Assembly: GCA_937888435.1 (NCBI GenBank)
Contig: CALAQS010000109.1
Location: forward strand, 26,039-90,038
Source: an uncultured Acidobacteriota bacterium
Lineage (GTDB): Bacteria > Acidobacteriota > Thermoanaerobaculia > UBA5066
Reading direction: 5' to 3'
Length of the DNA stretch: 64,000 bases
In this document: positions 28,602 through 45,047 of the stretch, in pieces
Position numbering within the stretch: position 1 is the stretch's first letter
How the letters are laid out: every line of letters begins with the position of its first letter
Position numbers and translations under genes: made by a program
The notes under the pieces: generated by a model
The model's database searches: none
Told to the model about the DNA's origin: nothing
What the model saw: the letters and a program-made list of their open reading frames with translations, nothing else

Positions 28602-30074
28602 ATGGTGAATGACCGGGAAATCCCGCTCGCCCTCACGTTCGACGACGTCCTCCTCCTCCCCGCCCGCTCGAAAGTCCATCCCGCCGAAACCGACCTGAAG
28701 ACGCGGCTCGCACCAGGGATCGGGCTGAACATCCCCATCCTTTCGGCCGCGATGGACACGGTCACCGAGTCGCGCCTCGCGATCGCGATGGCGCAGAACG
28801 GCGGGCTGGGCGTCATCCACAAGAACCTCACGATCGATTCGCAGGCCGCCGAGGTCGACAAGGTGAAGCGTTCGGAGAGCGGAATGATCGTCGACCCCGT
28901 CACCTGCCGCCCGACCCAGAGGATCTCGGAAGCGCTCGAGGTCATGGCGAACTTCCGGATCTCGGGGGTGCCGGTCGTGGACGACCGCGGCAAGCTCGTC
29001 GGCATCCTGACGAATCGCGATCTGCGCTTCGAGACGCGCATGGACCTCCCGATCTCCGAGCGCATGACGAAGGAGAACCTCGTGACGTGCCCGCCGGGCA
29101 CGACGCTCGAGCAGGCCAAGGAGCTGCTTCACCGCCACCGCATCGAGAAGCTGCTCGTCGTGGACCGCGCCGGCAACCTCAAGGGCCTCATCACGGTCAA
29201 GGACATCCAGAAGCAGATCAAGTACCCGAGCGCGTGCAAGGACTCGTTCGGCCGCCTGCGTGTGGCCGCGGCGGTGGGCGCGACCACCGATCTCCTAGAC
29301 CGGGCCCGGGAGCTCGTCGCGGCGAAGGTGGATCTCCTCGTGCTCGACTCCTCGCACGGCCACAGCGAAGGCGTGCTGGAGGCGCTCTCGTCCCTGAAGA
29401 AGAAGTTCCCGTCCGTCCCTGTTCTCGCGGGCAACGTGGCGACGGCGGAAGGGACGCGCGATCTCGTGCGCCGGGGGGCCGACGCCGTGAAGATCGGCAT
29501 CGGGCCCGGCTCCATCTGCACGACGCGCGTCGTCACGGGCGCCGGTGTGCCACAGATCCACGCGATCCAGGAATGCGTCAAGGGCGCCGCGAAGTCGAAC
29601 ATCTCCCTCGTGGCCGACGGCGGCATCAAGTTCTCGGGCGATGTCACGAAGGCGCTCGCCGCGGGCGCGCATTCCGTGATGATCGGGAGCCTCTTCGCGG
29701 GCACGGACGAAGCGCCCGGCGAGACGATTCTTTATCAGGGCCGCACGTTCAAGGCGTATCGCGGCATGGGCTCGCTCGGCGCGATGAAGCTGGGCTCCGC
29801 CGACCGGTACTTCCAGGACGAGGAAGAGCCGCGAAAGCTCGTGCCGGAGGGTATAGAGGGCATGGTTCCCCACAAGGGACCCGTTTCGACGCTCCTCACG
29901 CAGCTGACGGGCGGCGTGCGCTCGGGCATGGGCCTCGCGGGCGCCGCGACCCTCCCGGAGCTCGTGAGAAAGGCGCGGTTCGTGCGCATCACGGCGGCGG
30001 GCCTCCGCGAGAGCCACGCCCACGACGTGATCATCACGAAGGAAGCGCCGAACTACAGGCGCGAAGAGATCTGA
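28602..30074 (+). CDS. guaB: IMP dehydrogenase.
   Basis: TIM-barrel IMPDH with a CBS pair and the catalytic loop [11 protein letters not shown]. Confidence 0.95.
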
Positions 30075-35932: not shown

Positions 35933-36720
35933 TTCGATTCACTCTCCTCGTCGCGCACCGGCTGCGCCGCCCACGTCCCCGCCACGGGGCCTGAGACCGG
36001 GGCCGGCGCGATCTGCGTCCCGTCCCACGTGCCCGCGATGCGGCGCGATGCCCCGATCGTCAAGCGGCCGTAAAACTTCGCATCCACGCCGAGCTCGGAG
36101 TCGATCCGCTCGAGCGTGACGCGGTCGCCCACGAACGTGCCCCTGAGAGAACCATGAAACCCGCCGTCGAGGACATAGTCCCCCGAGAGGATTGTGCCGT
36201 CGAGCGAGAGGCGGTAGAAGCCGCGCCGCGCTCCCGGGTTGATGAAGACCTCCCAGCGGCCCGTGAGAGGGTCGGAAAGCGTGGTTCTGAGGGCCTCGCG
36301 GCGGCGCGCGATCTCCTCCCGGAACGCGGCGAGGCGCCGCACGCGCTCGGCGAGCCGCTCGGAAACGGCGAGGCGCCTGTTCTGTCCTGCCTGCACGCGC
36401 GCCCGCGCGTCAGAGGCGGCCTGCTCGGCCTGCTCCAGCGCGTTTCGGTCCAAGATGCCCTCGCGCGCGAGACGAGCGATTTGATTCAGGGCCGAAGTGA
36501 AGTCGGCCTCCGCCCGCGACGCCTGCCCCGAGATCCGGTCGAACTCCTCGAGATCCTCGGTCACGCGCCGCTTCTCCATGTCGACCGACGCCAGCAGGAC
36601 GTCGAGCACGCCATCGCCCGTCCGGCTCGGGACGGGCGCGGCGGCAGCCGGCAGCGCGAGCGTCAGCAGGAGTCCCACCGTCAGGCCGGTGAGCATCGGG
36701 CGCGAAGCCATCCTCGCCAC
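35929..36720 (-). CDS. Hypothetical secreted coiled-coil protein.
   Basis: Signal peptide LTVGLLLTLALPAAAAP and a long coiled-coil segment. First gene of a three-gene overlapping set with the TPR protein and rarA. Confidence 0.55.
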   Translation of the reverse strand: MARMASRPMLTGLTVGLLLTLALPAAAAPVPSRTGDGVLDVLLASVDMEKRRVTEDLEEFDRISGQASRAEADFTSALNQIARLAREGILDRNALEQAEQAASDARARVQAGQNRRLAVSERLAERVRRLAAFREEIARRREALRTTLSDPLTGRWEVFINPGARRGFYRLSLDGTILSGDYVLDGGFHGSLRGTFVGDRVTLERIDSELGVDAKFYGRLTIGASRRIAGTWDGTQIAPAPVSGPVAGTWAAQPVRDEESESK

Positions 36721-36778
36721 TATACGGAAGTTGCGGCCGCCCCATCGCGTCCGGAGTTTCTTTCGGGCGTGGAGGGGG

Positions 36779-36808
36779 CCAGGGGGACCCGGCCCGGGTT
36801 TCCCCTGG
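36779..36808 (-). terminator. Stem-loop immediately downstream of cdnL (candidate terminator or structural element).
   Basis: Near-perfect inverted repeat CCAGGGGGACCCGG C CCGGGTTTCCCCTGG. No clear U-tract. Confidence 0.3.
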
Positions 36809-36813
36809 GCAAT

Positions 36814-37350
36814 TCAGTGGTCGCGGTTATTTCCGGCCAGGACCGCGACGGGACGCCGCTTGAGGATCGCCCGGTCGAGTGCCTTCTCTACTTCGGTCGC
36901 GACCTCGCCCTCCGGCAGCCCGTTGATCTGCGCGATCTCGGAGACGATCAGATAGCGGGCGCGCTCGTACATCTTCTTCTCGCGGAAGGAGAGCGCCTTT
37001 TGTTTCTGCACCCACGTCAGGTTCTTGAGGACGTCCGCGATGTCCGTGAGGCGGCCGGAGCGCATCTTGTCGAGGTTCTGCTTGTACCGGCCCTTCCAGT
37101 CGCCGCTCGGCGGGAGCATCGCGTTCTCGAGAACGCGGAAGACCGAGCCCACGTCCTTGCGCCGCGTGAGCGGGCGGAGGCCGATGCGGTCCGAGTTCCC
37201 GACCGGCACCATCACGCGCGAGTTGTTCCCGATGAGGCGAAGCTGATAGCAGGGCGCGGTCGAGCCTTCGAGGAGGGACTCCTGGATCGTTTCCACGACC
37301 CCGACGCCGTGGTTCGGGTAGACAAGCCTGTCGCCGATCTTGAAAGCCAC
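36814..37350 (-). CDS. cdnL: CarD/CdnL-family RNA polymerase-binding transcription factor.
   Basis: CarD_CdnL_TRCF N-domain FKIGDRLVYPNHGVGVV. Confidence 0.85.
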   Translation of the reverse strand: MAFKIGDRLVYPNHGVGVVETIQESLLEGSTAPCYQLRLIGNNSRVMVPVGNSDRIGLRPLTRRKDVGSVFRVLENAMLPPSGDWKGRYKQNLDKMRSGRLTDIADVLKNLTWVQKQKALSFREKKMYERARYLIVSEIAQINGLPEGEVATEVEKALDRAILKRRPVAVLAGNNRDH

Positions 37351-37408
37351 GGCAAAATCCTCCTTGGAAAGGGGACCAAGAGATTACTCCCGCCCCCTCC
37401 GTGCGTCA

Positions 37409-38005
37409 ATGAGTTTGGCAGGCGCTAAACTCCCCGCCATGCCGAACGATTCCGGCCGCAACTCGCTCGTCGCCGAGATTCCCGTCTCCTTACCCGGGAA
37501 GCCCGACGCCGCGCGCACGGAAGAGCCCGACGAGGTGATGGCCCGCAACATCGCGGGCGTGCGCGCCGAGCGCCTCGCGGGCTACCACGACCATCGGGGC
37601 TCGCTCGTGCCCTTCATGGATTTCACGAGGCCTTTCTGGAACGAACCGATCGTCCACGCGTACGAGTTCACGATCCGGCCCGGGCGCATCAAGGGCTGGG
37701 GCATGCACCGCCGGCAGGCGGACCGCTACTTCGTTCAGACGGGCGACCTGCGAATCGTGCTCCACGACGGGCGCGAGGGCTCCCCCACGAAGAACGCCTT
37801 CTGCGAGTTCTGGTTCGCCGGGAGCGGATCCCTCCTCCTCTACATCCCGCAGGGCGTCTGGCACGCGACGTTGAACTGGGGCACGACGCTCGGGAGGATC
37901 GTGAACTTCGGCACGGCGCGGTTCGACCCCGCGGACCCCGACAAGGCCCGCATCGACCCGCACTCCGGCGTCATCCCGTTCGACTGGACGATCCGGGACG
38001 GCTGA
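37409..38005 (+). CDS. Cupin-fold protein, dTDP-4-dehydrorhamnose 3,5-epimerase (RmlC)-like.
   Basis: RmlC-like beta-barrel region (IKGWGMHRRQADRYFVQTGDLRIVLHD). Start ambiguous (ATG 37409 or 37439). 3' end overlaps the convergent GT2 gene. Confidence 0.5.
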   Translation: MSLAGAKLPAMPNDSGRNSLVAEIPVSLPGKPDAARTEEPDEVMARNIAGVRAERLAGYHDHRGSLVPFMDFTRPFWNEPIVHAYEFTIRPGRIKGWGMHRRQADRYFVQTGDLRIVLHDGREGSPTKNAFCEFWFAGSGSLLLYIPQGVWHATLNWGTTLGRIVNFGTARFDPADPDKARIDPHSGVIPFDWTIRDG

Positions 38006-39074
38006 GAGAGCGCAGCGCTGCGCGCAGCGGCTCGAGGACGGGCAGGAGGCGCAGGTAGATCCGCCACCAGAGGACGCTGGTCATCGCGGCGCTCTCCGCC
38101 TCGAGGCTGCGCGCATACTCGCGTTGGAGCGCGAGGTCCTGCTCGAGGGCGCGGCGCTCGTCCTCCACGTCGGCCGCCCGCGCCTCCGCGGGAGGCGCAG
38201 CGGTTCGCCGCTGTCCCGACGCGAGGCGCGCGGCGCGCTCCCCGGCCCGCGCGAGCGCGCGGGCGACGGACTCCGGCGAACCTCCGTCCCAGGGCTCCTG
38301 CGCCGCGATCGCTTCTCCCCACTTCGCGAGAAAAGACGCGCGATTGTGCGCCGAGACCCACTCGCGGAACTGCTTTCGCGAGCTGGAACCCCGCCGGTGC
38401 CGGTTGCGGGCGTGCGGCTCGAAGAGGACGGACCAACCGGCTTCGCGGAGCCCCATCGCAAGGTCGGTGTCGACGAAATACGCCGGGAAAAATCGCTCGT
38501 CGAGCCCGCCGGCGGCGTCCCAGGCCGCCGCGCGGACGAGAAGGGCGTTCGACCCGCAGAAGTCCACGGCGCGCCGGCGGCCGAAGGCGTCGGGCCGCGG
38601 CGGAGCGCCCGCCCAGGGCGGCGACGTCGCGCCGTCGCGCCAGAGAATCACTCCGGCGCCCTGCAGCGTCCCGTCCGGGAAGAGGACGAGCCCGCCAACG
38701 GCCCCCGCCTCGGGATGGGCGTCGGCCGCCGCGACGAGCGCCTCGAGCCAGCCCGCCTCGATCTCGGAGTCGTCGTGGAGAAGGGCCAGGAACTCCCCCC
38801 GCGCCACGCGCCGGCCGCGGTTCCCCGAGCGCGCGAGCCCCAGCCGCACGGAGGACGCGACGACCCGAGCCCCGGGCGCGGCGGCCTCGACGCGCGCCGC
38901 CGCGCCTTCCGGCGCGCCGTCGAGGACCACGATCGTCTCCGTCGGGATCGACGCCGGCAGGTGCCGCTCGAGCGAGCGCAGGCACGCGAACAGGAGTTCC
39001 TGGTCGGCCGCCGACGGGACGACGATCGAGACGCGCGGCGCCTCGGACCGGGGAATGTGGATGAGATCGCTCAC
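37971..39074 (-). CDS. Family 2 glycosyltransferase.
   Basis: GT-A fold with VSIVVP ... VLDGAP ... DDD region. GTG start chosen at 39074. The ORF-track start at 39095 (a TTG codon) would abut the tRNA. Confidence 0.72.
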   Translation of the reverse strand: MSDLIHIPRSEAPRVSIVVPSAADQELLFACLRSLERHLPASIPTETIVVLDGAPEGAAARVEAAAPGARVVASSVRLGLARSGNRGRRVARGEFLALLHDDSEIEAGWLEALVAAADAHPEAGAVGGLVLFPDGTLQGAGVILWRDGATSPPWAGAPPRPDAFGRRRAVDFCGSNALLVRAAAWDAAGGLDERFFPAYFVDTDLAMGLREAGWSVLFEPHARNRHRRGSSSRKQFREWVSAHNRASFLAKWGEAIAAQEPWDGGSPESVARALARAGERAARLASGQRRTAAPPAEARAADVEDERRALEQDLALQREYARSLEAESAAMTSVLWWRIYLRLLPVLEPLRAALRSLSRPGSSSRTG

Positions 39075-39096
39075 GCCGGGCCGTGACGATAGCAAG

Positions 39097-39183
39097 TGGT
39101 GCCGGAGGAGGGAGTCGAACCCTCACGGCCTTGTGGACCGGGGGATTTTGAGTCCCCTGCGTCTGCCATTCCGCCACTCCGGC
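39097..39183 (-). tRNA. tRNA-Leu (anticodon CAA), class II with long variable arm.
   Basis: Reverse complement reads GCCGGAGTGGCGGAATGGCAGACGCAGGGGACTCAAAATCCCC ... GAGGGTTCGACTCCCTCCTCCGGCACCA. 7-bp acceptor stem GCCGGAG/CTCCGGC, anticodon loop CTCAAAA, T-arm GGTTCGA, encoded CCA. Confidence 0.85.
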
Positions 39184-39197
39184 TCGCCGGAAAGAGT

Positions 39198-39662
39198 CTA
39201 CTGCCAGTCGAGCCGGACGTTGCGGTGGAGGTGCGCGGCGGCGCAGCCGGCGATCGTGCCGAGGACGTTCCAGAAGACGTCGTTCACGTCGGTCGCGCGG
39301 GTCGGCAGGAAGAGCTGGACCGTCTCGATGCCCACGCTGAACAGCGTCCCCGCGATGAGGACGTCCGCGTGGTTCCGCGCGGCGGAGCGGCCGGGGCCGT
39401 CGAGGAACTTCCACAGCAGGAACGCCCACACCGCGAACATCGCGAGGTTTCCGACGATCCCGACCACCGCGTAAAGGAACGCGTTCGACAGGTAGCCGCC
39501 GCGCCCCGCGCGCAGGATGAGGCGCTGGATGTCGTCGAACGGCGCGAGATTCGTGCGCACTCCTCCGCTCCCCTGCACGAGAAGCGTCACGGCGAGGAGG
39601 AGGCACGAATACGAGGCCAGCAGCAGCCCCTGAACGCCCTTGCCGACGCGGATCGTGCGCAC
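39198..39662 (-). CDS. VanZ-family membrane protein.
   Basis: Four TM helices and the VanZ-like FSVGIETVQLFLPTRATDVNDVFWNVLG motif. Only the C-terminal ~155 aa of the long ORF-track frame look protein-like. Confidence 0.62.
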   Translation of the reverse strand: MRTIRVGKGVQGLLLASYSCLLLAVTLLVQGSGGVRTNLAPFDDIQRLILRAGRGGYLSNAFLYAVVGIVGNLAMFAVWAFLLWKFLDGPGRSAARNHADVLIAGTLFSVGIETVQLFLPTRATDVNDVFWNVLGTIAGCAAAHLHRNVRLDWQ

Positions 39663-39722
39663 GGCGCGCAGATTACCCGAACAGGCGTTGACGAGGCCCC
39701 GCCTCCTCCCGACAATGCCTCC

Positions 39723-41033
39723 GTGACGACGCCACCGCCGACTTCGCCCGCGCGCACCACCGCCGTGCCCGCGCACGAGGGTTTTTTCGTCTCGGAGTTT
39801 CTCGGCGAGACGGTGCGCGACGTGGCGCGCCACCCCGTCGGAAAAATCTCGGACTTCGCCGTCGCCACGAGCACGCGCGCCCCCTTTCCGCGCGTGACGG
39901 GCCTCCTCATCCGCGACCGCTTCGAGACGTTCGTCCTGCCCTGGGAGGACGTCGCCATCTTCCAGCGCGGCGCCGTGCGCACCCGGCTCGTGAGGGAGGA
40001 CCTCCTGCATCGTCCCGCGCGGGAGGACGAGATCTTCCTCGCGCGCCATCTTCTCGACAAACAGATCGTGGACATCAACGGCGTGAAGGTCGTGCGCGTG
40101 AACGACCTCAAGCTGGACGTGCTGTCGGGCGACCTCGTGCTCACCGCCGCCGACGTGGGCGTGCGCGGCCTCGTGAGGCGGGTCTTCGGCGCGCGTGTCA
40201 CGCCGCGCGGAGGAAGGCTTTCCGACGCATCTCTTCCGGCGCGGCTCATACCGTGGGACTCGATGCAGCCGCTTCACGGGCGCCTCGAGCGTCTCGAGAC
40301 CACGCTGCCCCAGGAGAAGCTCCAGCGGCTCCATCCGGCCGACATCGCGGAGATCCTGAGCCAGGTCTCGGGCACCGAGCGATCCGGCATCTTCCAGAAG
40401 CTGAACGTCGAGACGGCTGCCGAGACGCTGCACGAGATGGAGCCCGAGATCCAGGCGGAGATCATCGAGGACCTGCCCGAGAGGCGCGCCTCGGAGATCC
40501 TCGAGCAGATGCCCGCGGACGAAGCGGCGGACGTCCTCGGCGAGATCGAGGGCGAGCACGCCCGCGACCTCGTCCAGCTCATGGAGAAGGGCGCGGCCGA
40601 AGAGGTCACCGAGCTGCTCGTGCACGACGAGAACACGGCGGGCGGCCTCATGGGAACCGACTTCGTCACGTTTCCGCCGAATCTCTCCGTGCGCGAGACG
40701 CTCCAGCGCCTCAGACCCCTGGCCCGCGACGCCGAGGCTCTCTTCTACTTCTACGTCGTCGACGAGAAGGATCGCGTGCTGGGCGCGCTCTCGGTGCGCA
40801 ACCTCCTCGCCGCCGACGATGACACGCTTCTCGAGAACGCCATGGCGACGCCCGTGCGTAGCGTCACGGCGGACGTCTCGGCCGACGAGGTCGCCGAGAC
40901 GATGTCCAAGTACGACCTCCTCGCCCTGCCCGTGACCGACCCCGAAGGCGTTCTCGTCGGCATCATCACGATCGACGACGTCGTCGACCGACTTCAACCG
41001 CAGCCTCGCCGCCACCGGCGGAGGCTGCGGTGA
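39723..41033 (+). CDS. Soluble MgtE-N domain plus CBS-pair protein (cytosolic Mg2+-sensing module of MgtE without the transmembrane domain).
   Basis: MgtE_N helical domain (LPQEKLQRLHPADIAEIL ... EILEQMPADEAADVLGEI), followed by two CBS motifs ending GIITIDDVVD. The ORF stops right after the CBS pair with no hydrophobic segments. GTG start assumed. Confidence 0.78.
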   Translation: MTTPPPTSPARTTAVPAHEGFFVSEFLGETVRDVARHPVGKISDFAVATSTRAPFPRVTGLLIRDRFETFVLPWEDVAIFQRGAVRTRLVREDLLHRPAREDEIFLARHLLDKQIVDINGVKVVRVNDLKLDVLSGDLVLTAADVGVRGLVRRVFGARVTPRGGRLSDASLPARLIPWDSMQPLHGRLERLETTLPQEKLQRLHPADIAEILSQVSGTERSGIFQKLNVETAAETLHEMEPEIQAEIIEDLPERRASEILEQMPADEAADVLGEIEGEHARDLVQLMEKGAAEEVTELLVHDENTAGGLMGTDFVTFPPNLSVRETLQRLRPLARDAEALFYFYVVDEKDRVLGALSVRNLLAADDDTLLENAMATPVRSVTADVSADEVAETMSKYDLLALPVTDPEGVLVGIITIDDVVDRLQPQPRRHRRRLR

Positions 41034-42322
41034 TCGCGCCGGCCGCCGACACGGCCTCTTCGCGCTCCGAGGTCCGCGGCTGGAAGCGGCGTGTGATGCT
41101 CTTTCTCGCGGTCCTCGGACCCGGGATCATCACGGCGAACGTCGACAACGACGCGGGCGGCATCGCGACGTACTCCATCGCGGGCGCCCACTTCGGCTAC
41201 TCGCTGCTCTGGACGCTCGTCCCCATCACGATCGCCCTCATCGTCGTCCAGGAGATGTCCGCACGCCTCGGCGCCATCACGGGAAAGGGCCTCGGCGAGC
41301 TCATACGCGAGAACTACGGCCTGAGGGCCACGTTCTACCTGCTCGTCGCCCTCCTCGTGACGGACATCGGGAACACGGTCGCCGAGTTCGCCGGCTGGGC
41401 GGCCGCGCTGGAGATCTTCGGGATCCCGCGCTTCGTCTCCGTGCCCATCGGCGCGTTCGTCGTGTGGTGGATCGTCGTGAAAGGGAACTACAAGTCGGTC
41501 GAGAAGGTATTCCTGATCGCCTGCACGATCTACCTGACGTACATCCTGTCGGCGATCTTCGCGAAACCCGTCTGGAAGGACGTCCTCAAGCAGACTTTCG
41601 AGCCCAGGATCGAGTCGAGCGCCGCGTGGATCCTGATGATCATCGGGATCGTCGGAACGACGATCGCGCCCTGGATGCAGTTCTACCTCCAGGCCTCCAT
41701 CGTGGAAAAACGAATCGGCCCGGAGGAGTACAAGCTCTCGCGCTGGGACGTCATCGTCGGCTGCATCCTGACGGACGTGGTCGCGTTCTTCATCATCGTC
41801 GCCTGCGCGGCCACCCTCTTTCCGAAGGGGATTCGCATCGAAGGCGCCGAGCAGGCGGCGCTCGCCTTGAAGCCGCTCGCGGGGAAATGGGCCGGTACGC
41901 TCTTCGCCTTCGGGCTCGCGAACGCCTCGCTGTTCGCGGCCTCCATCCTGCCGCTCGCCACGGCCTATTCCATCTGCGAGGGGCTGGGCTTCGAGGCCGG
42001 TGTGAACAAGACCTGGAGCGAGGCGCCCCAGTTCAATACGCTCTACACGGGCATGATCGTGATCGGCGCCGGCATCATCCTGATTCCCGGGGTTCCGCTC
42101 TTCCCCGTCCTCTTCCTGTCCCAGGTGCTGAACGGGTTGCTCCTCCCGTTCGTCCTCGTGTTCATGTGCCTCCTCATCAACCGCGAGGACCTCATGGGTG
42201 AGCACGTGAACGGCCGCGTGTGGAACTGGGTGGCCTGGGGGACCTGCGTCGTCATGATCGGACTGACGCTGGTCCTCGTCGTCACGTCGATCTGGCCCGG
42301 GCTGTTCCCGGCGAGCCCCTAA
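41030..42322 (+). CDS. NRAMP/SLC11-related transporter with non-canonical metal-site residues (NRMT-like, putative Mg2+ transporter).
   Basis: 11-12 TM helices with NRAMP fold motifs. TM1 has DAGG where canonical NRAMP has DPGN. TM6 has APW where canonical has MPH. GTGA overlap with the upstream MgtE-N/CBS gene. Confidence 0.82.
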   Translation: MIAPAADTASSRSEVRGWKRRVMLFLAVLGPGIITANVDNDAGGIATYSIAGAHFGYSLLWTLVPITIALIVVQEMSARLGAITGKGLGELIRENYGLRATFYLLVALLVTDIGNTVAEFAGWAAALEIFGIPRFVSVPIGAFVVWWIVVKGNYKSVEKVFLIACTIYLTYILSAIFAKPVWKDVLKQTFEPRIESSAAWILMIIGIVGTTIAPWMQFYLQASIVEKRIGPEEYKLSRWDVIVGCILTDVVAFFIIVACAATLFPKGIRIEGAEQAALALKPLAGKWAGTLFAFGLANASLFAASILPLATAYSICEGLGFEAGVNKTWSEAPQFNTLYTGMIVIGAGIILIPGVPLFPVLFLSQVLNGLLLPFVLVFMCLLINREDLMGEHVNGRVWNWVAWGTCVVMIGLTLVLVVTSIWPGLFPASP

Positions 42323-42426
42323 GCACGGGTATGCCCGTTGCTTGCCAACCTGTCGTGTGGCGTGTGCGTCTCATTGCGGGAACACCCATGCGTTCGGCTC
42401 CAAAATCCGGTCTTTCAGGAGGTTTC

Positions 42427-43101
42427 ATGCGTCGTTTCCTCGGCTTTCTCGCTCTCGCCTGCGCCGTTCTGACGCTCGCGGCGCCCGCTTACGCTCAGGA
42501 CCGCACCGGCACGTGGGAGATCTCGCCGTTCGCGGGCGGCTACTTTGGCGGTCGCCTTTACGGCAACTACACGGTTCCCTTCTCGTCCGGCACGGTGTCG
42601 AACGTCCGATTCCTCGAGCCGGACGACGACCTCGCGTACGGCGCACGCCTCGCGTACAACATCACGCGCCATTTCGGCTTCGAAGTCGACTGGACCTCCG
42701 CGCGTGCCGATCTCCGCTCTCCCGACTTCTTCGGCTCCGTTCCGCGACATCTCAACGTCGGGACCCTGCGCCAGAACGTCTACGAGGCGAACGCCCTGTT
42801 CAATTTCGGGCGTCGGCGCGTGATCGGCTACGTCGGCATAGGCGCCGGCAGCGCGGTCGAGAAGCGGGACATCGCCGGCGTCAACCCGGCCGCGACCGGC
42901 CGTTTCACGGCGAATCTCTCGGTCGGAGGAAAGTTCTTCTTCGTCCCGCGCGTCGGGCTGCGCATCGACGGCCGCTACCGCGCCATCGACCTCCGCTCTG
43001 ACGATGGCACCTCCTGTGACCACAACATTTTCTGCGACAACCGGCGGGGAAACTGGTCGTACAACGGAGAGGTCACCGGAGGGCTCGTCTTCGCCTTCTG
43101 A
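42427..43101 (+). CDS. Outer-membrane beta-barrel protein (OmpA-like/OMP_b-brl family).
   Basis: Signal peptide LALACAVLTLAAPAYA. Alternating beta-strand pattern with a terminal aromatic (LVFAF). AGGAGG RBS. Confidence 0.7.
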   Translation: MRRFLGFLALACAVLTLAAPAYAQDRTGTWEISPFAGGYFGGRLYGNYTVPFSSGTVSNVRFLEPDDDLAYGARLAYNITRHFGFEVDWTSARADLRSPDFFGSVPRHLNVGTLRQNVYEANALFNFGRRRVIGYVGIGAGSAVEKRDIAGVNPAATGRFTANLSVGGKFFFVPRVGLRIDGRYRAIDLRSDDGTSCDHNIFCDNRRGNWSYNGEVTGGLVFAF

Positions 43102-43104
43102 GCC

Positions 43105-43542
43105 TCACGGGGAGGAGGGGCGGATTCCCGGAGGCTCGACGTCGATCGTGCGCGACCCGTCGGACTCGATGCGCAGCGCGACGCGCCAGGCCCGCCGTTC
43201 GGTCAACGGCGGACGCGGCCATTCCACCGCGAGAATCGCGCTTTTCCGCTCGTCGAGACCGAGGTCCGCGATCGACGCGCCCGCGAAGACTCGATAGAGG
43301 TCGCCGTGGACGAGAAGGGGCGGCTTCCCCGCCGGCCCGTATTCGTGCACGAGAGCGAAGCTCGGGGACGACACGTCCTCCGGGTCGAGGCCGAGCCCGG
43401 CAGCGATCCCCTTTACGAAGGCAGTCTTGCCGGCACCGAGCTCCCCTTCGAGGAGCACGACGTCGCCGGGCGCGAGACGGCGCGCGAGGCTCGCCCCGAG
43501 GCGCCTCGTTTCCTCCTCGGTTGCCGAGACGTGCGACGTCAC
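43105..43542 (-). CDS. tsaE: tRNA t6A37 biosynthesis ATPase TsaE (YjeE).
   Basis: P-loop GELGAGKT and the conserved SPSF(A/T)LV motif. Confidence 0.85.
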   Translation of the reverse strand: MTSHVSATEEETRRLGASLARRLAPGDVVLLEGELGAGKTAFVKGIAAGLGLDPEDVSSPSFALVHEYGPAGKPPLLVHGDLYRVFAGASIADLGLDERKSAILAVEWPRPPLTERRAWRVALRIESDGSRTIDVEPPGIRPSSP

Positions 43543-45047
43543 CCGCCGACGCTCTCGCGCGCTTCGAAGAAGGCCTCGGAGAGCGCTTCCACGACGTCGG
43601 ACGCCGAGAGCGACTCCTCCCCTCTGACCTCCCGTACGAAGTCACCTGCCATGCCGTGGAGCCAGGCGGCCGCGCAGGCCGCATCGAAGGCGTCGAGGCC
43701 CCGCGCGAGGCACGCCCCGACGACGCCGGTGAGGACGTCGCCCGTCCCCCCCGAGGCAAGCGCGGGGTTCCCAGCGAGGACGGGCACGACCTGACCCGCC
43801 GGCGAGGCCACGAGGGGCCGGAACCCCTTGAGGATGACGACTGCCTTCGCCCGCGAGGCGATCTCGCGCGCTGCGACCTCCCGATCCGCGTTCACGCGCT
43901 CCGCGTCGAGGCCGAGGAGGCGCCCGGCCTCCCCGGCGTGCGGCGTGAGCACGGTGGGTGCGACCCGCGAAGCGAAGTACGCGGCCTCGCCGGCGAGGTT
44001 GAGCGCGTCCGCGTCGAAGACCGCCGGAAGGCGCGCCGCCGCCGTGCGCTGAAGGAGCGCGCGGGCAGCCGTCGACGCGCCGAGCCCGGGTCCGACCGCG
44101 AGGGCGTCGAAACGCGCGACATCGACGTCGGCGCCTGCCGTCGTCGTCTCGGGGCTGAGCGCGTGTACCACCCAACGCACGGAATCCGGCGCGAAAACGC
44201 TGACGAGGCCGGCCCCCGCACGGTGCGCTCCTCGCGCCGCGAGGGCGGGCGCCCCCGCCATGCCCTCGGTGCCTCCCACCACGAGCAGGCGCCCGAACGT
44301 GCCCTTGTGCGCCGTCGCCTCGCGCCGCGGGAAGAGTCTCGCGACGTCCAGAGCGCAGATGGCATCTCCCGCGGTCCCGCTCTCCTCCTCCAGAGGCAGA
44401 AAGCCGATGCCGGCGACGCCAATCCGCCCGCAAAGAGCCGCGGCAGGCAGGCGCACGTGACAGGGCTTCGGGTATCCGAACGTGACGGTGAGGTCGGCGC
44501 GTACGGCGGGAGACCACGGGAGCGGCTCGTCGGCCGAGAGACCAGAGGGCACGTCGACCGAGACTACGAACGACCGCCCTTCCGCGACGAGGCGCACGGC
44601 GCGCGCCGGAAGCCCGTCCGGCGAGATGGGCCTTTTCAGGCCCGTGCCGAAGAGCGCGTCCACGACGAGCGTCGCCGTCCGCAGAGGTTCGAGATCGGCT
44701 TCCTTCGTCACCTCGCGAATCGCCCCTCCTGCCTTCTCGAGGCGCTGGTGGGTCTTTCGGGCGTCCAGACTCAGATGCTCGGGCGCCCCGAAAAGCAGCG
44801 TCTCCACGTTTCCCCCGACGTGCGCCGCCTTGAGAAGGCGCGCCGCCTCGAAACCATCCCCTCCGTTGTTGCCCGGGCCCGCGAGGACGACGATTCGCGC
44901 GCCCCGGGATGCCCGGCGCGCGACGACGCCCGCGATCTCCCGCACGAGCGCCGCGGCGGCCCGTTTCATGAGGACGAGCCCCGGCGTACCGGCCGCGATC
45001 GTCCGCGCGTCCAGGGCGCGGGCAGCCTCCGACGTGAGAACCTTCAC
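43539..45047 (-). CDS. nnr: Bifunctional NAD(P)H-hydrate repair enzyme (epimerase/ADP-dependent dehydratase).
   Basis: N-terminal YjeF_N domain (GPGNNGGDG) plus a C-terminal carbohydrate-kinase-like dehydratase domain (GGTGDVL). Confidence 0.9.
   Translation of the reverse strand: MKVLTSEAARALDARTIAAGTPGLVLMKRAAAALVREIAGVVARRASRGARIVVLAGPGNNGGDGFEAARLLKAAHVGGNVETLLFGAPEHLSLDARKTHQRLEKAGGAIREVTKEADLEPLRTATLVVDALFGTGLKRPISPDGLPARAVRLVAEGRSFVVSVDVPSGLSADEPLPWSPAVRADLTVTFGYPKPCHVRLPAAALCGRIGVAGIGFLPLEEESGTAGDAICALDVARLFPRREATAHKGTFGRLLVVGGTEGMAGAPALAARGAHRAGAGLVSVFAPDSVRWVVHALSPETTTAGADVDVARFDALAVGPGLGASTAARALLQRTAAARLPAVFDADALNLAGEAAYFASRVAPTVLTPHAGEAGRLLGLDAERVNADREVAAREIASRAKAVVILKGFRPLVASPAGQVVPVLAGNPALASGGTGDVLTGVVGACLARGLDAFDAACAAAWLHGMAGDFVREVRGEESLSASDVVEALSEAFFEARESVGG

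Follow-up and report, generated by a model that had tools for sequence, protein, structure and literature searches.

The 64,000-nucleotide stretch of DNA examined here (the window) comes from an uncultured Acidobacteriota bacterium of the class Thermoanaerobaculia (assembly GCA_937888435.1, contig CALAQS010000109.1, positions 26,039–90,038). It almost certainly carries an nrmT operon, in which a gene for an accessory protein related to the MgtE cytoplasmic domain (ORF1) is followed by a gene for an NRAMP-related transporter of the NRMT type (ORF2). It is also near certain that an MgtE cytoplasmic-domain protein accompanies most NRMT genes. Rather than a truncated channel, ORF1 is the cytosolic sensor module of MgtE in stand-alone form, and it is probably co-transcribed with ORF2, the Shine-Dalgarno (SD) sequence of which lies inside the tail of ORF1, with a 4-nt overlap between the genes. 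On the comparisons given below, the most likely function of ORF1, to which we would give about an even chance, is that of a trans-acting gate by which divalent cations exert negative feedback on the NRMT carrier. Coordinates of the features are collected in Table 1.

The first-pass annotation of this DNA had described ORF1 as an MgtE_N helical domain followed by a CBS pair, without a transmembrane (TM) region. Pfam, the mgtE profile TIGR00400 and Kyte-Doolittle hydropathy all agree with that description as far as it goes, but the first ~190 residues, which form a tandem PRC-barrel, had been overlooked. Pfam matched MgtE_N at amino acids (aa) 203–304 (E 8e-26), two CBS domains (E 7e-19) and, weakly, a PRC-barrel, and returned no match in ORF1 to the MgtE membrane domain (PF01769). 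TIGR00400 aligned only over profile positions 24–252 of 450, with a score of 174 bits that is below the cut-off of 232.75. No TM helix was found in ORF1, the maximum 19-residue Kyte-Doolittle value being 1.62, on a β-strand of the AlphaFold2 (AF2) model. This model was built from 73 homologues and has a mean predicted local distance difference test score (pLDDT) of 83.5. It shows two β domains (aa 20–100 and 103–177), a flexible linker, the helical MgtE_N domain (aa 197–299), the CBS pair (aa 303–423) and a disordered tail.

An MgtE_N and CBS architecture without the pore domain might also mark a truncated or frameshifted MgtE channel gene, be it a pseudogene or a sequencing error. This explanation is refuted and retains a negligible probability. 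A frameshift or error that would restore the MgtE TM domain, raised as a concern in the first-pass annotation, was looked for in all frames of the window and not found: full-length MgtE proteins aligned to the 64-kb sequence (tblastn) through their cytosolic residues 1–409 only, and their TM part showed no similarity in any frame, so there is no concealed frameshifted membrane domain. Of 4,395 homologues matched at E <= 1e-5, 120 were listed, and the majority of these are full-length proteins of 414–456 aa; the others are three longer gene calls and a number of shorter entries, several of which are marked partial or lie on short contigs. The homologues compared (421–445 aa) have a similar N-terminal leader. 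The closest among the matches listed are from metagenome-assembled genomes (MAGs) of Thermoanaerobaculia, at <=96% identity, followed by Nitrospirota at ~45%. ORF1 is, in addition, highly conserved along its length, and its stop codon overlaps the start of ORF2. A pseudogene is excluded by the homologue lengths, by the absent TM-domain similarity and by the adjacency to an NRMT gene in 77 of 80 loci, described below.

The resemblance to MgtE extends to the ion-binding residues. ORF1 aa 187–428 align with the cytosolic domain of Thermus thermophilus MgtE (TtMgtE; PDB 2YVY/2YVX/2ZY9) at 39% identity (E 3e-42), and Foldseek placed the C-terminal half of the AF2 model on Mg2+-bound 2YVY with a template modelling score (TM-score) of 0.83 and a root-mean-square deviation of 2.3 Å. 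In MgtE, mutation of E59, D91, D95, D226, D247 and D250, the residues of sites Mg4–Mg7, prevents closing (PMC5882242). All six are kept in ORF1, the first three as E234, D266 and D270 in MgtE_N and the others as D398, D419 and D422 in the CBS pair, and these acidic ligands are near-invariant among relatives. The two proteins share the MgtE_N and CBS-pair fold with its Mg4–Mg7 acids, while ORF1 differs in being a separate polypeptide with no TM pore and in carrying the N-terminal tandem PRC-barrel. The alignment stops at TtMgtE residue 256, and where MgtE continues into an acidic plug helix, ORF1 has a basic tail (PRRHRRRLR). The CBS pair of MgtE also contacts ATP, through Y170, R187, D188, N203 and F227 (PMC5529423). 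The first two are kept in ORF1 as Y342 and R359, D188 is replaced by Asn and N203 by Ala, and the adenine-stacking F227 is Leu in 12 of 12 aligned members of the ORF1 family. Since the stacking Phe is Leu family-wide and Asn203 is not conserved, nucleotide binding by ORF1 appears doubtful.

ORF2 is an NRAMP-fold transporter, as the first-pass annotation had proposed. It has ~11 hydrophobic segments and matches Pfam Nramp (PF01566) at E 3.5e-103 over profile positions 1–356 of 357. The best solved relative is EleNRMT of Eggerthella lenta (PDB 7QIA/7QIC/7QJI/7QJJ; Ramanadane et al. 2022, eLife 11:e74589), with 45% identity across the whole carrier (7QIA; 367.7 bits, E 8.8e-109), and the best canonical MntH comes far behind (119 bits, E 2e-33). 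According to Ramanadane et al., the site residues that define NRMTs are Asp55, Gly58 in place of Asn, Thr224, Ala in place of Met, and Gln379 (PMC8806188). ORF2 shares the metal site of EleNRMT, with D41, G44, T210, A213, W215 and Q365 corresponding to D55, G58, T224, A227, W229 and Q379, so that the signature is complete: D-x-x-G in TM1 (DAGG, not DPGN), T-x-x-A-P-W replacing A-x-x-M-P-H in TM6, where the His of proton-coupled NRAMPs has become Trp, and Gln in TM10. The motifs N-D-A-G-G and G-T-T-x-x-P are invariant across the NRMT alignment, ORF2 included. EleNRMT, which was characterised by itself without a partner protein, carries Mg2+ and Mn2+ but not Ca2+, without coupling to protons (PMC8806188); by homology the same would be expected of ORF2.

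The association between the two genes was surveyed at 80 independent genomic loci from several phyla that carry an ORF1 relative, down to 38% identity. A relative of ORF2 is immediately adjacent in 77, lying directly downstream in each, on the same strand in 74 and inverted in three. Two of the remaining loci end at a contig edge, and the third (L065) is a true exception, having no NRMT gene and an unrelated minus-strand gene downstream. The reverse check found the partner upstream of all three distant NRMT-like genes considered: one from Chloroflexi that is 31% identical to EleNRMT, one at locus L092, and one that is 77% identical to EleNRMT and is preceded, 12 nt upstream, by a 494-aa PRC/MgtE_N/CBS gene. 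Because this last relative has a partner gene, EleNRMT probably has one of its own. Genes flanking the pair vary by clade and only the pair itself is conserved; the Thermoanaerobaculia loci share the context seen in the window (VanZ on one side and genes for an outer membrane protein (OMP), TsaE, YjeF and DUF2064 on the other), and the Nitrospirota loci do not.

At the junction, the sequence GTGA (41030–41033), reported in the first-pass annotation and read again here, places the GTG start of ORF2 over the TGA stop of ORF1. A purine-rich SD-like core is present at the matching position in 14 of the 14 closest relatives (GGAGA in L015; in L018 a GGAGG stands ~3 nt further upstream), and the overlap codon among close relatives may be GTG, TTG or CTG, with the downstream peptide remaining in frame. 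More widely, 37 of the 71 same-strand loci that are intact could start ORF2 at an xTGA overlap, and where the stop is TGA (49 loci), the tail codons include an SD-like 4-mer in 46. Judged from these sequence patterns, translational coupling of ORF1 and ORF2 is probable, being well supported in this clade and not universal. Together with the adjacency in 77 of 80 loci, the overlap and the SD sequence bear out two proposals of the first-pass annotation, namely that a sensor module is paired with a carrier of the SLC11/NRAMP superfamily and that the two are probably translationally coupled; the neighbourhood survey it had called for shows that the adjacency is not due to chance. The K/R-rich tail of ORF1 persists in relatives that have long intergenic gaps, no overlap and no SD-like motif, and is therefore a feature of the protein. 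That it is a mere by-product of the SD sequence was considered and rejected on the same ground.

Six close relatives (L006, L007, L008, L009, L016 and L017) have CTG as the overlap codon; the upstream GGAGG is kept in them, as is the downstream N-terminal peptide in most, and they either initiate at CTG or use a start ~23–62 nt downstream. On their account an ORF2 start at ATG 41096 was weighed and the overlapping start favoured instead. Most of the 14 close relatives conserve the N-terminal peptide (IAPAA...W[KR]RR) and the SD-like core in frame, though less strongly in L015, L016 and L018, and for this reason the overlapping start is preferred, though unproven.

The pairing was thought at first pass to be undescribed, a claim that fails because Shin et al. 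(2014, PLoS Genet 10:e1004429, PMC4072509) had already named NrmT, reported operons of an MgtE cytoplasmic-domain fragment with NrmT and co-expressed one such pair. Their examples are the Clostridium acetobutylicum Ca_c0685 operon and Acidobacterium capsulatum Acp2976/Acp2977. Like the present locus, these operons consist of two genes, the MgtE-like soluble one first and the NRAMP-related transporter second, and ORF1 matches their description of the MgtE-like fragment and of its adjacency to nrmT. They describe the partner as a 'small' MgtE N-terminal fragment and mention no PRC-barrel, whereas ORF1 has 436 aa, of which 190 make up the tandem PRC-barrel. The Mg2+-specific subset of NrmT is controlled by an M-box riboswitch (PMC4072509). 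Unlike that subset, this locus has no M-box: an Rfam E-value scan of window positions 36000–44000 found neither an M-box nor another riboswitch, a tRNA being the sole match. The A. capsulatum pair is likewise acidobacterial and lacks the M-box, but belongs to another class than this Thermoanaerobaculia MAG lineage. The partner is not discussed in the 2022 EleNRMT paper or in later NRAMP papers, and no study of it after that of Shin et al. was found in the literature searched. The pairing has been known since 2014, and the additions made here (ligands kept, plug helix lost, a conserved tandem PRC-barrel) are modest details.

Shin et al. speculated that the fragment serves in cytoplasmic feedback regulation, or else has a chaperone or Mn2+-responsive role (PMC4072509). 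In the gating mechanism proposed here, ORF1 would provide the bare carrier with the cytosolic sensor for divalent cations that it does not itself possess. At rising levels of free Mg2+ (or Mn2+), MgtE_N and the CBS pair would be bridged by the ion through the kept acidic ligands, as in MgtE. The sensor, now closed and probably dimeric, would then attach to NRMT from the cytoplasmic side by way of its basic tail and/or PRC-barrels. Once docked, it would lock or occlude the carrier and so shut off, in trans, the uncoupled influx driven by the membrane potential. In favour of the proposal, ORF1 keeps the very carboxylates by which MgtE, at millimolar Mg2+, closes its N and CBS domains, and it appears to be made in stoichiometric amounts with a carrier that is uncoupled and without a regulatory domain of its own. 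MgtE and CorA do have such domains, and in them these cytoplasmic gating domains tie intracellular Mg2+ demand to transport (Shin et al., PMC4072509). A narrower version, in which ORF1 would be a detachable gate that specifically senses Mg2+, attaches to the SLC11-fold carrier by its tandem PRC-barrel as well as its basic tail, and shuts it when cytosolic Mg2+ is high, is put forward more tentatively, as somewhat short of an even chance.

Several points weigh against a gate. The plug helix with the Mg2/Mg3 ligands (E258, D259) is absent from ORF1. In MgtE it is this helix, with its ligands, that passes closure on to the pore (site residues: PMC5882242), so coupling between sensor and carrier would need another route. 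EleNRMT and the Clostridium NrmT function without a partner (PMC8806188, PMC4072509). Co-expression of Acp2976 and Acp2977 in Mg2+-transport-deficient B. subtilis did not improve rescue any further (PMC4072509), a result that is silent on gating because the assay sought better uptake and an inhibitor would give none at limiting Mg2+. Given the lack of an M-box here and an A. capsulatum NrmT that behaved for the most part as a Mn2+ importer, the ion sensed or transported may not be Mg2+. A soluble relative (P0143; see below) has no NRAMP neighbour, its gene being followed by HpaB-like and enoyl-CoA hydratase genes. Finally, the pair has no Rosetta-stone support, because the apparent fusions are indel-ridden assemblies. 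Three candidate ORF1–ORF2 fusion proteins (P0126, P0127 and P0132) returned by a concatenated-query search were rejected as products of indel errors; in the contigs L085 and L086 (ENA contig_58896 and contig_116345) the homologues of ORF1 and ORF2 are split over frames and their protein sequences are out of frame.

The identity of the ion lies behind another explanation, in which ORF1 is a sensor, buffer or chaperone for Mn2+ or for divalent metals generally that receives the imported ion, with no gate for Mg2+. It is unlikely, although it has the most to recommend it among the alternatives. The riboswitch-less A. capsulatum NrmT fully rescued a Mn2+ transport defect and only partly a Mg2+ defect (PMC4072509), EleNRMT carries Mn2+ as well as Mg2+, and the locus, like that of A. 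capsulatum, is acidobacterial and without a detectable M-box; a chaperone or Mn2+-responsive role is also among the suggestions of Shin et al. (PMC4072509). Set against this, the ligands of ORF1 are all hard carboxylates, identical to those of the millimolar Mg2+ sites in MgtE, and ORF2 conserves T210, the equivalent of which in EleNRMT is specifically needed for Mg2+. A chaperone, moreover, is hard to justify for an ion present at millimolar concentration.

ORF1 could also be a positive factor that activates, stabilises or assembles NRMT, for example by opening it at low Mg2+. Translational coupling would suit such a role, as it suggests stoichiometric co-production, and the A. capsulatum transporter by itself gives weak Mg2+ rescue. 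Yet rescue was not improved when the A. capsulatum partner was added, EleNRMT and the Clostridium NrmT are active without one, and the homologous domain of MgtE, when Mg2+-bound, stabilises the closed state. A positive role is accordingly rated as improbable.

The N-terminal ~190 residues of ORF1 form a module of their own, which AF2 and Foldseek identify as a tandem PRC-barrel. At the level of Pfam, PF05239 scores 27.5 bits against a cut-off of 21.2, yet no individual stretch passes alone. Modelled separately, aa 1–190 gave a pLDDT of 82 and a predicted TM-score (pTM) of 0.76. The fold found to be nearest is that of CdpB1 and CdpB2, which have a role in archaeal cell division. Their tandem PRC-barrel, in the entry entitled CdpB1/CdpB2 heterodimer (PDB 8QZO), was the best Foldseek match to aa 1–190 (E 2.5e-5, probability 1.0), with 16–20% identity, a likeness of fold alone. 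Further matches were to the tandem PRC protein 8ONW, the reaction-centre H subunit and RimM. The block of ORF1 with the highest conservation (aa 108–153, window 40044–40181, LLDKQIVDINGVKVVRVNDLKL...RGLVRRVFG) lies inside PRC-barrel 2, with a mean majority fraction of 0.75–0.85 in the conservation profile, above that of MgtE_N and CBS.

The same block recurs, equally conserved, in full-length PRC-MgtE channels, a subfamily of ~600–650 aa with an N-terminal PRC-barrel of the ORF1 type (P0130, P0131, P0133–P0137, P0150, P0228 and others) that was met with in Armatimonadota, Actinomycetota, Ktedonobacterales, Thermosporothrix, Dictyobacter and Thermogemmatispora. Members such as P0130 and P0150 (Armatimonadota) and P0228 (Thermosporothrix) have the PRC/MgtE_N/CBS order of ORF1, are 33–40% identical over residues 1–409 and share with it the invariant Q114/I115/D117/V124/D128 block. 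They then run on into the PF01769 pore, whereas ORF1 ends and an NRMT gene comes next. No paper dealing with both a PRC-barrel and MgtE was found in the literature searched. P0143 (L087/L088, 4001–5497) is a 498-aa soluble relative with an extra N-terminal MgtE_N-like stretch.

These relatives bear on a further possibility, that ORF1 is an independent cytosolic sensor whose PRC-barrels direct it to a different target and which never contacts NRMT, the two being co-expressed as parts of a shared metal-homeostasis regulon. The PRC2 block, the most conserved part of ORF1, is conserved equally in channels that have no NRMT, P0143 adjoins unrelated metabolic genes, and co-expression in B. subtilis had no visible effect. 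That 77 of 80 genomes, from several phyla, keep the two genes adjacent, even after inversion and often with translational coupling, is, on the contrary, typical of subunits or direct partners; the flanks of the pair vary between clades, and no further gene is conserved alongside it. We consider this possibility quite unlikely, a little more so than a Mn2+ or general-metal role.

Were the gating proposal correct, one ancestral sensor module would govern pores of two unrelated architectures, acting in cis in MgtE channels and in trans in NRMT carriers, an example of regulatory domain reuse over two transporter superfamilies. NRMT would then have to be seen as a system of two components, one regulating the other, and its native regulator would have been missing from the transport and structural studies published so far. 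An uncoupled Mg2+/Mn2+ importer without regulation would be dangerous to a cell, and a trans-acting sensor of the MgtE type would explain how it is controlled. The locus and its ~75 syntenic relatives offer paired sequences for co-evolution analysis and multimer modelling, and the Mg4–Mg7 ligands, the missing plug helix, the basic tail and the PRC2 block are concrete targets for mutagenesis.

Table 1. Features of the nrmT locus and its upstream neighbours (window coordinates).
Feature	Position	Strand	Basis or remarks
ORF1, soluble MgtE-like sensor protein, 436 aa	39723..41033	+	GTG start, TGA stop 41031-41033
PRC-barrel 1, ORF1 aa 20-100	39780..40022	+	AF2 pLDDT >90, all-beta; Foldseek to 8QZO
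PRC-barrel 2 and next helix, ORF1 aa 103-180	40029..40262	+	Pfam PRC match aa 103-140; AF2; Foldseek
MgtE_N helical domain, ORF1 aa 197-304	40311..40634	+	Pfam; TtMgtE 2YVY alignment; Foldseek
CBS pair, ORF1 aa 305-424	40635..40994	+	Pfam; TtMgtE alignment; AF2; Foldseek
Basic disordered C-terminal tail of ORF1, LQPQPRRHRRRLR	40995..41030	+	Alignment, site mapping, AF2
SD-like sequence for ORF2, GGAGG	41020..41024	+	In Arg codons of the ORF1 tail, 5 nt before GTG
ORF2, NRMT-type (NRAMP-related) predicted Mg2+/Mn2+ transporter, 430 aa, ~11 TM	41030..42322	+	GTG start
Promoter-like site, TTGACG-17-GACAAT	39688..39716	+	Consensus scan, 1 found vs 0.2 expected; pattern match only
VanZ-like gene, divergent from ORF1	39198-39680	-	PF04892, E 2.7e-18
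tRNA-Leu (anticodon CAA), sole tRNA in window	39097-39183	-	Between GT2 glycosyltransferase gene and VanZ-like gene
221-aa ORF between CarD and GT2 genes	37340-38005	+	Pfam: no match at E <= 0.001

The promoter-like site ends 6 nt ahead of the ORF1 start codon, and the mRNA would be nearly leaderless if this candidate promoter is used. A terminator-like hairpin, CGTGCCCGCGCACG followed by AGGGTTTTTT (window 39764–39787, plus strand), is located ~40 nt into ORF1; it may be due to chance, as its T-run is formed by conserved Gly-Phe-Phe codons and its stem is just 5 bp. A VanZ neighbour is also found upstream of the pair in the Thermoanaerobaculia loci L001 and L004. L004 and L017 are from GCA_050258155.1, an assembly labelled Acidithiobacillales, and show 75% ORF1 identity to Thermoanaerobaculia loci. 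The contig is fully syntenic with these (CarD, VanZ, the pair, OMP, TsaE, YjeF and DUF2064), and its label may reflect mis-binning. Elsewhere in the window, a second, unrelated CBS-domain-like coding stretch (28842–29243, plus strand) gave a weak tblastn match to the CBS part of MgtE (E 2e-6).

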